A stretch of 64,000 nucleotides of DNA from Candidatus Latescibacterota bacterium (lineage in GTDB: Bacteria; Latescibacterota; UBA2968; UBA8231). The stretch spans positions 1,664,001-1,728,000 of the forward strand of contig OY730476.1 of the NCBI GenBank assembly GCA_963422735.1. The letters run 5' to 3'. A model generated the notes under the pieces. That model was given only the letters and a program-made list of their open reading frames with translations. It did no database searches and was not told the DNA's origin. A program made the position numbers and the translations under genes. Below are positions 41,915-49,497 of this stretch, piece after piece. Every line of letters starts with the position of its first letter. Position 1 is the first letter of the stretch.

Positions 41915-44536
41915 TCAAGTATTGAGTCGAAGGTCTTCTTCTCTCTCCTTTTTGCGGAATGGAATGCCGAGTTTCCGCAGCCGGCTGCGCAGCGTGTTGG
42001 GATGGATGCCGAGCAAGTGGGCCGCTCCTCGTGGGCCGTAAATGACCCCGTTGGTGTGGGCCAACACGCAGGTCAGGTATTCGCGCAAGTGGTCCTCAAG
42101 CGGCACAATGGCGAAGGCGCCTTCGATCGGATGGCATCTGGCCGCGCCTATACCTTGAGCAAAGTGATCCGGCTCGATAGGGCCTCGATGGGCCACTAGG
42201 ACGGCGCGCTGAACAACGTGTTCCAACTGGCGCACATTGCCCGGCCAGTCGTAGGCTTGCAGTGCTTCTATCCCGGCGGAACTGATGGGCGCGGAAGGCT
42301 GGTTCGGTTGGACCGCAAACTGCGTGGCAAAATACTCAGCAAGCAGCGGGATATCTTCCGGGCGTTCTTTCAGGGGGGGAATACGGATAGAATAGCCTTC
42401 GAGCCGGTAGAACAGGTCGGCGCGGAAGGTCCCGCTGACGACGGCCTGCTCGAGGTCGTCGTGGGTCGCAGCGATGACGCGAACATCAACGGGGATGGCT
42501 TGGTTGCCGCCGACTCTGTAGATCTGTTGTTCCTGTAGTACTTCCAGCAAGTTCGCCTGCACATCGAGGGTGAGATCGCCGATTTCATCGAGGAACAGGG
42601 TACCTTGGTCGGCCCGTTCAAATTTGCCTATGTGGCGGTCATGCGCCCCGGTAAAGGCTCCTTTTTCGTGGCCGAATAACTCGTTGTTGACCAGCTCGCG
42701 CTGAAGTGTGCCGCAGTTGACGGAGACAAACGGCGCAGCTCGGCGCGCGCTCAACTCGTGGATCGCTTGGGCGGCGAGGCTCTTGCCGGTGCCGGTTTCG
42801 CCGAGTAAGAGCACCGTCAAATCCGTCTCGGCCGCCTTGAGGAGATGGGCATCCACTTGGCGTATAACTTGGCTCTGGCCTACGAACCAGCGTTTCAGTA
42901 CGTCCATGCGGGTGTCTTCGGTGATCTCAAACTGAACCCTAGCTTGGTCGGAATAGGTGAGGTCCCGATCTATGGCTTGGAGGCAAAACGTATAAGTCCC
43001 CGGCTGAAGTGGCGGGTATTCCACTTGAGTCTCGGCCGTCTGCCGCCACTCCGACTCTAGGCCGTCAAGGCGGTAGCGGTAGCTCAGATGAGATGGGTGA
43101 TCAAGTGGGCTGGTGCCCTCAAAGTGGATGCGGACGCGATCCGCCGTACCGGGCAAGCGAATCGCTTGGTCGGCGACGACCTCATAGACTGCATCGGCCT
43201 CTAGGCTCACGATGGTCGCTTGTGGGGGTATGCGTTGGGGTGTGTACCGCACTAAGGCACCTTTGGTCACCAGATAGAGCGCACCGTCGCGGTCTTCAGC
43301 GAGAGCACGGACGGTGTTGCACAAGGAGAGTTCAGGCACCTCGACATTTTGGAAGACTTGGTCGTCGTAGCCGCACAGCCCGCGGCCTTCGGTGCCCATC
43401 CACAGCCGCCCGTCGCGGGCTTGGATGACGCTGGTGACGGTATCGCACGGCAGCCCGTCGCCCCGGGTGAAATGACGGATTCGACCCTCTTTTAAACACA
43501 ACAATCCTTGGTTGGTCCCTATCCACAGCCGCCCGTCGCCCCCCTCGTACAGGGCAAATACCAAACAGGCGGGCACGGCATCTACTTTTGCACACGTGGT
43601 GCCGTCGAAGCGGTACAGCCCGTGCTCTTCATCCGCAGAGTTCGACCCCAACCATAGATGCCCTTGACGACTCCAAGCGAGGACATCAATCTGAAGGGGA
43701 GTCGCTCGCCCGAACCAGCGAACCTGCCCGTCCTCGACATAGCCGAACCCGCCTCCGTGCTGATAGGCAAACCAGACCCGGCCGTATTCATCTATAGTAA
43801 TAGCCGAAATGGCGTCCGGCGACGCGGGTTGGTGCATTAATTTTATCTGCCGGGCGTCGTAGTCGTAACAATATAGGCCCGTGCCGGTTTCCCCAAACCA
43901 TACGCAGCCGTCCCGATCTAGGCATAGTGCCGTGATCTCTTGGCATCCGGGGATGGCTACGTTCTCGGCACGGCTCCAATGGGTGTCAAAACGGACGAGT
44001 CCGCCTTCGGTGCTGGTCCACAAAGGGTCGGCATTGCTCTGGGCGATGCAGGTAAGACCTGTCGCTGGCAGCCCGTGGTCGGGGCCGAAGACTTGCAGGC
44101 GTTGGCTGTCGTAGCAGTATAGGCCCCTATCGCGAGTTCCCACCCAGAGCCGCCCGAGGCGATCCACGCACAAACCCCGCGAGAAAGAGAGGTCGCCCCG
44201 GTGCGCGAAGTCCATTCGCTCGGCATCGCAACAGGCCAATGCGCCCTCGTAGGCGGTCAGATAGATAGTCTCTGAACGAGGATCCGCCTCAATGGCAAGG
44301 AAGTGAAGCTGGCGACTAGGCTCCAGCAGGCGGAAATCCTGGCCATCGAATACAAAGACGCCGACACTGGTGGCCAGCCAAAGGGTGCCGTCTGATCGGG
44401 CCAACAAGCCCGTCACCTCTGCATTGGGAGCCACCTCGTTAAATCGCGCATGTCTATGGGGTATGTCACTCATGCGGTTGTAGGAGTACAGGCTGCGACC
44501 ACCGCACCAGATAGTCCCCTGAGTGTCGATAGCCAA
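41915..44536 (-). CDS. sigma54-dependent activator with Reg_prop beta-propeller and Y_Y_Y sensor domains, possibly 5'-truncated
   Basis: Repeated 'D..G.LW.GT...GL' blades; YRYRLDG...[35 protein letters not shown]; Fis-type HTH. Confidence 0.9.
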
Positions 44537-44578
44537 GGCACAGATGCTTTCGCCGTGGAAGTAGGCGCGATCGGTTAG

Positions 44579-47262: not shown

Positions 47263-47352
47263 GGTTGTCTTCTGTTCTACTGATCCTGTTGGGCAAATAG
47301 AGTAGGGTATTAGACCCGCTACGTATCCACCCACTACCTCTGGAGATGAACG

Positions 47353-49497
47353 ATGCGCTGCTTGCTCATAGCAATTTTGTTGTTGGCGGTTCCGTTGGGA
47401 GCCTGCGCCTTAACGTGGGATTTTACCGAAGGCACCACTTGGGGCTGGACCGCCCAAGAGAGTTTTTTGTCTAGGGATGGTACTATCACCACGGTGTCCA
47501 GCGAAGTCGAAGACGGCGTTTGGCGCATTGCTCCGGTGCCTAACGCGCAACGACCGGCCATTCAATTGCGCTCGCCGCCGATTGGGGAAGACTCCGCCCT
47601 ATTCGACTGGGTCACCCTACGGCTGCGCATCGCACATGATCGCCCCACTAGGGGAAACCTTCTGATGCAGTGGTTCAATCCCGAATACAGACGCCGCAAG
47701 GAGAAATTGGGCCAATTCGGACTACTAGGTGCCCTGACGAGCGTTAGTACGGGACGTTCTCAAATCTATCCCACGGAATGGGAAAACATCACGATAGATA
47801 TACGCGCTTTGGAAGCCGCTGCGGAAGCGAACCCAGCAGAGGAGATCGTTTGGCATGACACCCTCTTCTACTTCTATATAGAACTGAATTTAAACATCGA
47901 TGCGTCGGGCCCGGCCGATCATCCGGCCTTTGTCGAAGTGGACTGGATTCAACTGACGGGAGCTGAAGAGTTGCTGCTGGGAGAATTGCAGCCCCGGGAG
48001 ATCCCAGTAGAGGCCGGATTGCCCGGCGAGTTATTTGCCGCGCCCGATTTTTTTTCCCTCGGCGAGGGTATTGAGATAGTATCCTCTCCGCTATTATCGT
48101 CAAGTGCTTTGGGGGATGTGGATGGCGATGGGGATGTGGACCTCGTGGTGACTTGGGAGCGTAAAGCGGACGGTAGAGTAAGCTCAGGTTGGCAGGTAGC
48201 GTCCAACGACGGTTTGGGTGGCTTTGTGACCACCCAAGAGGTTCGCCGTCCAACAAGCCAAGACGAGTGGCTCGCTCTAGGCATAGCGGGGGGTGATTTC
48301 GGCGGAGATGGGCTGCTCGATCTGGCCTTTCGTGAAGGTCAGACCATTGAATTGTGGCTCAACCGGGGCGAGGATGGCTTTGAAACGATCCTACAGCTAT
48401 CCGACGTCCGTTTCCTTGGCTTGGCCGATGGCGACGGCGATGGCGATGTGGACCTGTTGGGTGTGGAGGAAGGCGACACTGAGTACAACGTAATTATATG
48501 GTTCAACGACGGGGCCTCTGGGTTTGTCCGCAGTGATCGGTTTACCCTCGACGGCGAGGAGGAGCTCTTTCCTTTTCTGTTGGCTGGTCAACCGTTGGGC
48601 GAGGCCGTGCGCCTGTTGTGGAACCGAGTGTGCTACGAGCCTTGGGGGCCTTGGCACCTGACCCGGCCGTGGTCGGCTAGCGAGCCGCCGCTGTTTTTTG
48701 AGGCAGAAGTAAACCCCTGTGACCTGCACCTGTTCACCGACCTTGATGGCGATAGAGCGGTTGAGTTCGTCGGGACTCCCAAGCGGGATCTACAATTCGA
48801 TCCTTTTTACGCTGGCATTACCTATCACGGTTTGGCGCTGTGGCGGGTGGACGCCTTGGGCAGGGTGGAACGCCACACTCTGCTCGGTCCGCAGGTGCGC
48901 GTACCGCATCGGGCCATTGCCAGCGACCTCAACGGCGATGGCCTGCTGGACTTGGCCATCGTCGATGGCAACTTGGTGACCGGGCCGGCACTGGTGGTGC
49001 TGGTCGGTCAGCGCGATGGGGTGCCCATCGTCGAAGGGCGCTACCGGCTGCCGGGCACGGGCGGCGAGGTACTGGCCGGCGATGTAAACGGCGATGGGGC
49101 GACCGATTTGGTGGTGCTGGGAAGGAGTGTGGAAGGCGGTCCGGGCGGGGCCTTCGTCTTCATCAACCAAGGCGTCCCGGCCACAGCCATCGCGGTCGAG
49201 ACGGCGGCCACGCCCTCAACCGTTGCCCTCGGTGCCAACTATCCTAATCCATTCAACCCGGCTACGACCATCCCCTTGGCCGTGCCCGCCCAAGCCGGGG
49301 GCGTGGATTTAACGATCTACAACACATTGGGTCAGCCAGTGCGCCACGTATGGAACGGTCCGTTGGCGGCGGGCGAGCACCGGCTAACTTGGGATGGCCG
49401 GGACGCACAGGGCCAGCCCGTCGCTGCTGGGGTCTATTTGTATCGGTTGCAGGTGGACGACCAGACGCGCATCCGCAAGATGGTCAAACTCGAATAG
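47353..49497 (+). CDS. secreted FG-GAP repeat protein with a C-terminal FlgD-Ig (secretion-tail-like) domain
   Basis: Signal peptide; multiple GDxDGDGxxDL repeats; NYPNPFNP.T.I...WDGRD..G..VAAGVY. Confidence 0.92.
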   Translation: MRCLLIAILLLAVPLGACALTWDFTEGTTWGWTAQESFLSRDGTITTVSSEVEDGVWRIAPVPNAQRPAIQLRSPPIGEDSALFDWVTLRLRIAHDRPTRGNLLMQWFNPEYRRRKEKLGQFGLLGALTSVSTGRSQIYPTEWENITIDIRALEAAAEANPAEEIVWHDTLFYFYIELNLNIDASGPADHPAFVEVDWIQLTGAEELLLGELQPREIPVEAGLPGELFAAPDFFSLGEGIEIVSSPLLSSSALGDVDGDGDVDLVVTWERKADGRVSSGWQVASNDGLGGFVTTQEVRRPTSQDEWLALGIAGGDFGGDGLLDLAFREGQTIELWLNRGEDGFETILQLSDVRFLGLADGDGDGDVDLLGVEEGDTEYNVIIWFNDGASGFVRSDRFTLDGEEELFPFLLAGQPLGEAVRLLWNRVCYEPWGPWHLTRPWSASEPPLFFEAEVNPCDLHLFTDLDGDRAVEFVGTPKRDLQFDPFYAGITYHGLALWRVDALGRVERHTLLGPQVRVPHRAIASDLNGDGLLDLAIVDGNLVTGPALVVLVGQRDGVPIVEGRYRLPGTGGEVLAGDVNGDGATDLVVLGRSVEGGPGGAFVFINQGVPATAIAVETAATPSTVALGANYPNPFNPATTIPLAVPAQAGGVDLTIYNTLGQPVRHVWNGPLAAGEHRLTWDGRDAQGQPVAAGVYLYRLQVDDQTRIRKMVKLE

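Follow-up and report, generated by a model that had tools for sequence, protein, structure and literature searches.

The 64,000-nucleotide stretch of Candidatus Latescibacterota contig OY730476.1 presented above (the window) contains a tightly packed run of genes for a membrane-anchored flavin mononucleotide (FMN)-binding protein, two thioredoxin-like proteins of the TlpA type (TlpA1 and TlpA2), a small secreted cysteine-rich peptide and a secreted FG-GAP propeller protein, preceded by the remnant of an A24 peptidase gene and, on the opposite strand, by a sigma-54 activator gene (Table 1). These features had been listed in an initial annotation made from the letters alone, and each was found in place among the open reading frames (ORFs) or in the sequence. 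Comparison with related loci suggests, at a probability of about 0.6, that they represent a lineage-specific module for cutting and disulfide-folding small secreted Cys-rich peptides, of which the window holds a recently damaged copy.

The gene set was mapped by tblastn in other genomes, using the window proteins and those of a paralogous locus as queries. The FMN, TlpA1, TlpA2, peptide and FG-GAP genes lie in a row in 11 loci of the type found in the window (W type: L006, L007, L008, L010, L012, L013, L014, L017, L019, L020, L021). An A24 gene (372-381 aa) is directly upstream in eight of the 11, being broken in one of these (L013); two other loci end inside the A24 gene, at contig ends, and L010 is without it. 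Downstream, a GT1-transglutaminase fusion and a GT2 glycosyltransferase follow in seven (L006, L012, L013, L014, L017, L019, L021), then a TPR protein in six of those (not L021), and a DUF4159 gene was mapped in L006, L014, L019 and L021; the remaining four W-type loci have further FG-GAP or peptide cassettes instead.

A second arrangement (A type) has the order activator-(peptide-FG-GAP)n-FMN-A24-TlpA1-TlpA-TPR-GT1/transglutaminase-GT2-DUF4159. Its FMN-A24-TlpA1-TlpA core was found in nine loci, as well as in the genome studied here at 340-364 kb, and peptide/FG-GAP cassettes are directly upstream in at least seven of the nine. The A-type FMN protein is 35-37% identical to that of the window and keeps both the CxxC and the flavinylation motif. 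More distant matches to the CxxC-bearing FMN protein, in other genera or families of the class, led to seven further loci, at identities of 27-44% to the queries. FMN-TlpA1-TlpA2 is present in six of these, five times together with the A24 gene, and in each of the six between one and three Cys-rich genes with the leader are found a few kilobases away at most. The conserved core therefore comprises five genes (FMN, TlpA1, TlpA2, A24 and peptide); the other parts, which the distant loci do not have, are additions of this genus and its close relatives. Intact copies with variable peptides, for which the initial annotation had recommended a synteny search, do exist at W- and A-type loci, and the association that it had proposed between the FMN and TlpA genes and a Cys-rich small ORF recurs throughout (11 W-type, at least seven of nine A-type and six of seven distant loci).

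A different partner was seen beside some of the distant peptide genes: a secreted protein of ~300 aa, encoded after the peptide gene (L052:11144-12118, L054:11771-12661, L054:12699-13691). No Pfam family matches it and it is not similar to the FG-GAP protein; its paralogues share a conserved C-terminal motif.

Table 1. Coordinates of the window copy and of leader-bearing fusion proteins at other loci
Feature	Position	Strand	Basis
Sigma-54 activator with Reg_prop/Y_Y_Y propeller sensor, 5'-truncated	41915..44536	-	Pfam, NCBIfam
Deletion junction, 1,384 bp missing relative to L019	44596..44598	.	blastn against L019
A24/GxGD peptidase C-terminal remnant, 136 codons, both catalytic Asp motifs missing	44594..45004	+	orthologue alignment
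Membrane-anchored RnfG/NqrC-like FMN-binding protein, CxxC 109-112, motif Thr175	45015..45638	+	AlphaFold2 fold, motifs
TlpA-like protein 1 (CSAC), N-terminal anchor	45635..46174, best start 45635	+	AhpC-TSA match
TlpA-like protein 2 (CPYC), pseudogene	46190..46740	+	alignment with 6 orthologues
Conserved 5' leader region before peptide gene, holds upstream ORF	46741..46868	+	blocks shared over 17 loci
Peptide precursor, 115 aa: 61-aa extended leader/signal and 54-aa six-Cys core	46869..47216	+	family searches, alignments
Strong hairpin after peptide gene	47215..47271	+	-32.9 kcal/mol, z -4.86
Secreted FG-GAP propeller protein, type IX secretion system (T9SS) C-terminal sorting domain, ORF intact	47353..49497	+	Pfam, NCBIfam
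Decayed locus tail, gene fragments	49519..52420	+	tblastn against intact paralogous locus, Pfam, intact loci
Leader/Cys-module/T9SS fusions	L038:13135-14127, L038:14124-15038, L041:9992-10984, L041:11046-11897, L015:18546-19418		
Leader/Cys-module/T9SS fusions	L008:16953-17633, L008:19146-19823, L022:8570-9229, L022:9310-9960, L030:9173-9985		

The window precursor matches no Pfam or NCBIfam family at E<=0.01, yet it belongs to a large group of proteins. A profile search recovered 363 members at E<=0.01 among 1,054 candidates, mostly of 90-96 aa; none has a precomputed Pfam annotation, and "hypothetical protein" is the sole source name among 120 listed. An exhaustive hidden Markov model search extended the family to at least 150 clusters (50% identity), of which 44 reach E<=1e-10; 13 of 14 inspected clusters share the same plan, and the other (P0274) is a spurious repeat protein. 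Of the 46 loci taken from species-representative genomes, 43 come from Latescibacterota/Latescibacteria metagenome-assembled genomes (MAGs), two from a single "Gemmatimonadota" MAG and one from an Aeromicrobium record (L051) in which the match is weak (E 2e-4). The nearest atlas clusters to homologue P0037 are ~90-aa hypothetical proteins labelled Poribacteria (0.82-0.83), a lead only. Up to 20 peptide matches occur in one genome. In the genome studied here there are three paralogues, at 341-361 kb, which share the first ~45 residues and have a wholly different, eight-Cys C-terminal part; full-length orthologues of the window form, which is somewhat longer (106-122 aa, with a longer leader), are 49-83% identical.

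What unites these proteins is the leader, with an n-region motif (F-x2-S-x-S-G ... R-x-G-L-x3-W), a hydrophobic stretch and an A-x-A site. Residues F23, G29, W41 and A61 and three Cys are invariant in all 27 aligned peptides, the distant ones included. A Gly stands before the hydrophobic stretch in 24 of the 27, a second Gly seven residues upstream is invariant, and the pilin-type +5 position is occupied by an invariant Trp rather than Glu. Leader and core have evolved at very different rates. For the leader, median dN (nonsynonymous substitution rate) is 0.094 and median dN/dS (its ratio to the synonymous rate) 0.15 (136 pairs from 17 W-type genes), indicating purifying selection; for the core, median dN is 0.73, about eight times as high, and median dN/dS 0.56 over the 106 pairs left when the 30 of 136 with saturated dS are set aside. 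Positive selection on the core was not shown; the ratio is above 1 in only five of the 106 pairs. The small ORF starting at 46869, on which the initial annotation had staked its proposal, is thus a real gene, with hundreds of homologues and a coding signal in its leader.

In the AlphaFold2 model of the precursor the leader is unstructured (predicted local distance difference test score, pLDDT, ~45), and residues 70-115 form three antiparallel strands at pLDDT 91-94. The core fold had no clear counterpart in the PDB (best Foldseek E 0.5; best VIA-align Z 3.5 and none >=5 among ~48,000 chains), which does not show the fold to be new. The same leader also heads longer paralogues (216-330 aa), which continue with Cys-rich modules, from one to three in tandem, and end in a T9SS sorting domain. 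These fusions show that the leader serves proteins that have to cross the inner membrane and then use T9SS; the window peptide itself is without a T9SS tail.

The FMN-binding protein of the window has the motifs CSVC and SGAT. Its AlphaFold2 model (pLDDT 77.3, predicted template-modelling score 0.68) consists of an N-terminal helix and a domain of the RnfG/NqrC fold, and the 14 PDB entries that Foldseek ranks highest are without exception RnfG or NqrC (best E 2.2e-5, probability 1.0), which are the subunits of Rnf and Na+-NQR that carry covalent flavin. Both the CxxC and a D-G-I-[ST]-G-A-T motif are invariant in 21 of 21 FMN proteins, and the CxxC, which in the model sits in a loop between two strands of the domain, is present in all 30 mapped regions. 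One ApbE match (275.5 bits) was found in the genome.

Both TlpA-like proteins, which have the thioredoxin fold of the AhpC-TSA/Redoxin group, exceed the AhpC-TSA cut-off of 26 bits: TlpA1 (CSAC) with 31.1 and TlpA2 (CPYC) with 55.5. More specific assignments fall short: the pair scores 34.1 and 22.9 bits against the MauD equivalog model TIGR02661 (cut-off 188.6), and ResA and MauD NCBIfam matches in general are weak and far under their cut-offs. TlpA1 is well preserved, its orthologues being 82-87% identical and starting at the end of the FMN gene; in the window its start overlaps the FMN stop codon. Its signal anchor is in frame with the thioredoxin domain, which is not so for TlpA2 of the window.

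A general source of disulfides was also sought in the genome. DsbB, VKOR, DSBA and Thioredoxin_4 gave no matches, and the seeming absence of an oxidant had at one stage been counted in favor of an oxidising flavin relay. That argument was dropped when a 328-aa fusion of MauE (65.6 bits, C-x-C) to a thioredoxin-like CIHC domain was found outside the window (C1:1002550-1003536, minus strand). This fusion is a candidate general disulfide-forming enzyme; MauE is reported to replace DsbB (bioRxiv 10.64898/2026.03.05.709764).

The peptidase remnant has no Pfam match. It can nonetheless be taken as a true A24 remnant because it corresponds to the C-terminal ~135 residues of an A24 peptidase of 385 aa encoded elsewhere in the genome and is 78-90% identical to the C-termini of the full-length orthologues. 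An intact orthologue and the paralogue score 30.1 and 30.0 bits against PF01478 (cut-off 26.5), and the two catalytic Asp motifs, D33 and GDAKL, both within the part deleted from the window, are invariant in 17 of 17 intact peptidases. There is also a weak match to the archaeal A24 C-terminal domain Arc_PepC (E 0.002). The initial annotation, in calling this an A24-peptidase-like remnant, was right about its nature, and the comparison adds that the peptidase is not unrelated to its neighbors: it is a conserved core member of the module.

The FG-GAP protein matches FG-GAP_3 (2.2e-15) and FlgD_ig (8.3e-12) in Pfam, and its tail is a T9SS sorting domain (TIGR04183, Por_Secre_tail, 34.2 bits against a cut-off of 23). 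It shares 65-75% identity with full-length orthologues, and the genome encodes T9SS machinery (SprA 611 bits summed, PorU 632 bits). The initial annotation had spoken of a maturation and export pathway; the export part was not borne out, there being no exporter in the cluster, although an ABC/C39 exporter was not searched for. Export must rely on Sec, with T9SS for the products of neighboring genes. Elsewhere, four to six FG-GAP/T9SS genes, 65-68% identical to that of the window, stand in tandem (L007:10486-20344, L009:64-19047), with a peptide gene before only some members of these arrays.

The activator gene encodes clear Sigma54_activat (E 5.9e-66), Reg_prop (7.8e-33) and Y_Y_Y (1.6e-13) domains. 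No -24/-12 sigma-54 promoter was found on the plus strand of the window between 38 and 53 kb, and over the whole window the pattern is not enriched (71 matches, 75 expected). In seven orthologous loci (L006, L007, L008, L014, L017, L019, L020), a consensus TGGCAC-N5-TTGCA (10-11 of 11 positions) is located ~60 nt upstream of A24; in L010, a consensus promoter is upstream of the FMN gene. W-type peptide genes that do not follow TlpA2 (L009, L015) are served by a separate promoter at about -145. In the genome studied here, each of the three paralogous peptide genes has one ~130 nt upstream, and among 80 A-type peptide genes such a promoter occurs within 260 nt of 33. The description of the operon as sigma-54-linked is therefore upheld by orthologues and paralogues; it fails for the window copy, from which the promoter is deleted, and for the distant loci.

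Two further features flank the peptide gene. The hairpin that follows it has a 17-bp stem and was matched by none of 200 shuffled sequences. Within 90 nt after the peptide gene, a hairpin of z < -2.5 is found in 12 of 24 cases, and in W-type orthologues both arms differ and pairing is kept; it is likely to be an attenuator, terminator or RNA stabiliser. On the other side, the region 46741-46868 and the orthologous positions contain strongly conserved blocks, including a Shine-Dalgarno-like one ~80 nt ahead of the true start codon, as well as a small stem; as a single sequence its fold is ordinary (z -1.0). The upstream ORF listed there in the initial annotation (46747-46872) is rejected as a gene: its frame is not conserved, orthologues having indels of 1-2 nt.

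The initial annotation had also suspected that this copy may be decaying, and the extent of the damage has become clear from comparison with L019. By blastn, window 41937-44598 corresponds to L019 3688-6325 and window 44596-45100 to L019 7710-8221. The 1,384 bp missing at the junction took the first ~140 activator codons, the sigma-54 promoter (at 6938 in L019, inside the deleted stretch) and ~237 peptidase codons; the activator, whose alignment ends at 44598, has 873 aa in the window, against 1016 in L019 and 1021 in L010. A second lesion is a 16-bp deletion in TlpA2 after ~46341, because of which the signal anchor (frame 46190) and the thioredoxin domain (frame 46183) are no longer read in one frame; the 16 bp are present in six of six orthologues, all of them single-frame. 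Finally, what is left of the locus tail is a mosaic: 166 aa of a GT1 N-terminus, 134 aa of an FG-GAP protein, a fragmented DUF4159 gene, the first 37 aa of a TPR protein and a solitary ORF with a T9SS tail. It looks as if cassette copies had recombined repeatedly. Still intact are the ORFs for the FMN protein, TlpA1, the peptide and the FG-GAP protein.

Public assemblies suggest that these lesions are real. A 7,952-nt contig from a different study runs gaplessly through 41500-49293, deletion junction included. Two other runs share the 16-bp TlpA2 deletion, which is seen in contigs of X5 and X11, and a contig of one of them also crosses the large junction gaplessly. In run X7, a contig retains the 16 TlpA2 bases, and the run with these bases in place also has contigs that diverge exactly at 44593/44598. 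Since another study's contig spans the region and variants occur in another run, the lesions are not errors of one assembly; the variant contigs indicate that they are recent and polymorphic. None of the listed runs is recorded as RNA, and short contigs of run X11 on 42.4-48.1 kb were not used as evidence of expression, their RNA nature being only guessed. The window copy is probably a decaying, promoter-less paralogue, at best dependent on its intact paralogous counterpart at 340-364 kb in this genome. It amounts to a natural partial knockout, with intact variants circulating in related populations. Relatives decay independently: L010 (7281-8143) keeps its sigma-54 promoter and is without the whole A24 gene, and in L013 (6987-8095) the A24 gene is broken after 65 codons.

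How might such a module work? A dedicated processing and disulfide-folding role is suggested because the protease, the flavin/CxxC protein, the TlpA pair and the Cys-rich peptides are conserved together. The precursor would enter the inner membrane by way of its long conserved leader; the A24 (GxGD) aspartyl protease, FlaK-like, may cut the cytoplasmic n-region at one of the conserved glycines, and signal peptidase I would then free the core. In the periplasm, the three to four disulfides of the core could be made and shuffled by the two membrane-anchored TlpA-like proteins (CxAC and CPYC), with their redox state set by the putatively ApbE-flavinylated, membrane-anchored RnfG/NqrC-like protein through its own invariant CxxC. 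In this genus the module is joined to FG-GAP proteins and proteins with Cys-rich modules, both with T9SS sorting domains, and to two glycosyltransferases, a TPR protein and a DUF4159 protein, which suggests a surface or extracellular product; expression would be driven from sigma-54 promoters by the propeller-sensor activator.

Several observations count against this folding-module model, or parts of it. The distant loci gave no FG-GAP, glycosyltransferase or DUF4159 match and have no sigma-54 promoter near the module, so that the FG-GAP and sigma-54 parts would be genus-level additions. The co-occurrence counts, which favor the model, overstate the support, because related genomes are not independent. 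Of 168 genomes of the phylum, 26 have the full-length FMN protein with CxxC (E<1e-40), 30 the A24 subfamily (E<=1e-20) and 29 the peptide (E<=1e-3). A peptide match accompanies the FMN protein in 22 of 26 genomes and the A24 subfamily in 24 of 30; in G052, which is among the misses, a peptide was found by eye. FMN_bind (PF04205) scores are under the cut-off of 22 bits both in the window (19.0) and in L019 (17.8), for which reason the case for flavinylation is built on motif, fold and ApbE. The peptidase profile had no match at E<=1 among PDB sequences; the proposed -1 Gly is V or A in three of 27 peptides, with Glu at +5 absent; and the A-x-A site might by itself account for core release, in which case the protease would not be needed. 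If the MauE-thioredoxin fusion is the general oxidant, the module could equally be reductive or isomerising.

A more ambitious version would make the RnfG/NqrC-like protein, with its CxxC beside a covalent FMN, a periplasmic flavin-dependent sulfhydryl oxidase, a bacterial analogue of Erv/QSOX that generates disulfides de novo and passes them via the TlpA pair to hypervariable Cys-rich mini-proteins, their leader being cut by the FlaK-like GxGD protease and the products displayed or released via T9SS-linked FG-GAP proteins as variable ligands or effectors towards a host or competitors; as a whole this seems doubtful. Another possibility is that the peptides are pilin-like, with a class III leader cut only by A24 and a hydrophobic helix that is kept and anchors or polymerises the Cys-rich head at the surface in the manner of archaeal FlaK/PibD substrates. 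An A24 peptidase with both catalytic Asp motifs in the module core and its weak Arc_PepC match would fit, as would the basic residue and Gly directly before the hydrophobic stretch in 24 of 27 peptides and the combination, resembling pilins, of a conserved N-terminus with a variable, disulfide-bearing C-terminus. This is nevertheless unlikely, given that the A-x-A after the hydrophobic stretch is conserved (A61 in 27 of 27), that Glu is absent at +5 and that the same leader heads T9SS-tailed proteins: T9SS cargo must leave the inner membrane.

The peptides could also be glycocin- or defensin-like bacteriocins, modified by the thioredoxin-like pair and by GT2 and GT1 as sublancin is by BdbA/BdbB and SunS, the variable cores being the mark of an arms race with competitors. 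The two thioredoxin-like genes, GT2 and GT1 genes and many variable Cys-rich precursors in one locus, the several cassettes per genome (up to those 20 matches) and the roughly eightfold excess of core over leader dN (0.73 and 0.09) are what such a history might leave behind; the dN/dS values of the core (median 0.56, few pairs above 1) are not. Moreover, the leader looks Sec-type, with no double-glycine leader (an ABC/C39 exporter was not among the mapping queries), glycosyltransferases are absent from the distant loci, matches to the laterosporulin fold are at noise level (Z 2.8, Foldseek E 1.6) and no immunity gene was identified, making bacteriocins distinctly improbable. It is also conceivable that the FMN and TlpA proteins serve other clients (FG-GAP proteins, or cytochrome or copper-centre assembly) and that they adjoin the peptide gene only through common descent of a locus that is mobile and duplicates. 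Cytochrome or copper-centre maturation is the usual role of TlpA/ResA-type proteins, the weak ResA and MauD matches point the same way, and the locus readily duplicates and decays. That the peptide linkage persists down to 27-44% identity, in rearranged order and in loci without FG-GAP, and that no cytochrome or copper protein genes were among the ORFs inspected in the distant loci, renders this explanation very improbable.

Judged from sequence, the proposed folding module is a conserved system without a name, and it resembles several known ones in part. The initial annotation knew of no described cluster with this combination, and literature searches, supplements not covered, likewise gave no description; a term search of PMC12993501 showed no keyword other than cysteine metabolism. 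DsbD-DUF3570-thioredoxin-like-DUF4266 and P19 clusters are described as hybrid flavinylation/thioredoxin-like systems (eLife 2021, PMC8238504). The first of these is the nearest published hybrid. In both, as in the present module, genes for thioredoxin-like proteins and for a small secreted protein with conserved Cys lie next to one for an extracytosolic protein flavinylated in the ApbE manner (putatively so here). By comparison with the DUF3570 cluster, the flavin protein here is of the RnfG/NqrC-like FMN_bind type with a CxxC, and the cluster has neither DsbD nor ApbE but includes an A24 peptidase as well as hypervariable multi-Cys peptides.

Sublancin and glycocin clusters (sunA-sunT-bdbA-sunS-bdbB; the gcc cluster of glycocin F) likewise place a multi-disulfide precursor beside dedicated thioredoxin-like oxidoreductases, a GT2 and a regulator of their own. 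The GT2 counterpart here is found in intact loci, the window's own glycosyltransferase genes being fragments; the leader is Sec-type or extended, not double-glycine, the A24 peptidase and flavin CxxC protein are additional, and the precursors (~90-115 aa) exist in many variable copies. With MauD and MauE, which serve the methylamine dehydrogenase small subunit, the module shares a TlpA/MauD-like protein for a small multi-disulfide protein, and a MauE is present in the genome; it is located outside the module, however, and the membrane partner within is the FMN-binding CxxC protein. Archaeal FlaK/PibD-type A24 peptidases act on class III signal peptides, and have in common with the A24 member a GxGD protease with an extra C-terminal domain (here the weak Arc_PepC match) and a basic residue and Gly before the hydrophobic stretch. 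The candidate substrates here differ in being Cys-rich mini-proteins with a downstream A-x-A, and no pilus or archaellum genes were among those mapped, a pilus ATPase or platform protein not having been queried. Long signal peptides with an n-region motif common to a secreted family are also known, as in the extended signal peptide region (ESPR) of autotransporters and the YSIRK and KxYKxGKxW types; the motif in the present family is a different one, and it goes together with a membrane protease of its own and a redox trio.

DsbB, VKOR and MauE enzymes are quinone-linked. If the folding-module model is correct, covalent flavin with CxxC would be a third cofactor logic in bacterial extracytoplasmic thiol chemistry, and the Cys-rich precursors would be a non-pilin class of substrate for A24/GxGD proteases. 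The peptides would also stand for a large family, so far without a name, of disulfide-rich mini-proteins that are conserved in the leader and variable in the core, in a phylum about which little is known; sponge-derived or other marine MAGs account for several of the named genome records. The five-gene module is compact and directly testable by co-expression. Just upstream of the locus, on the opposite strand, is a second weak DUF4159-like gene (39141-40274, minus strand; E 1.7e-4, below the cut-off).

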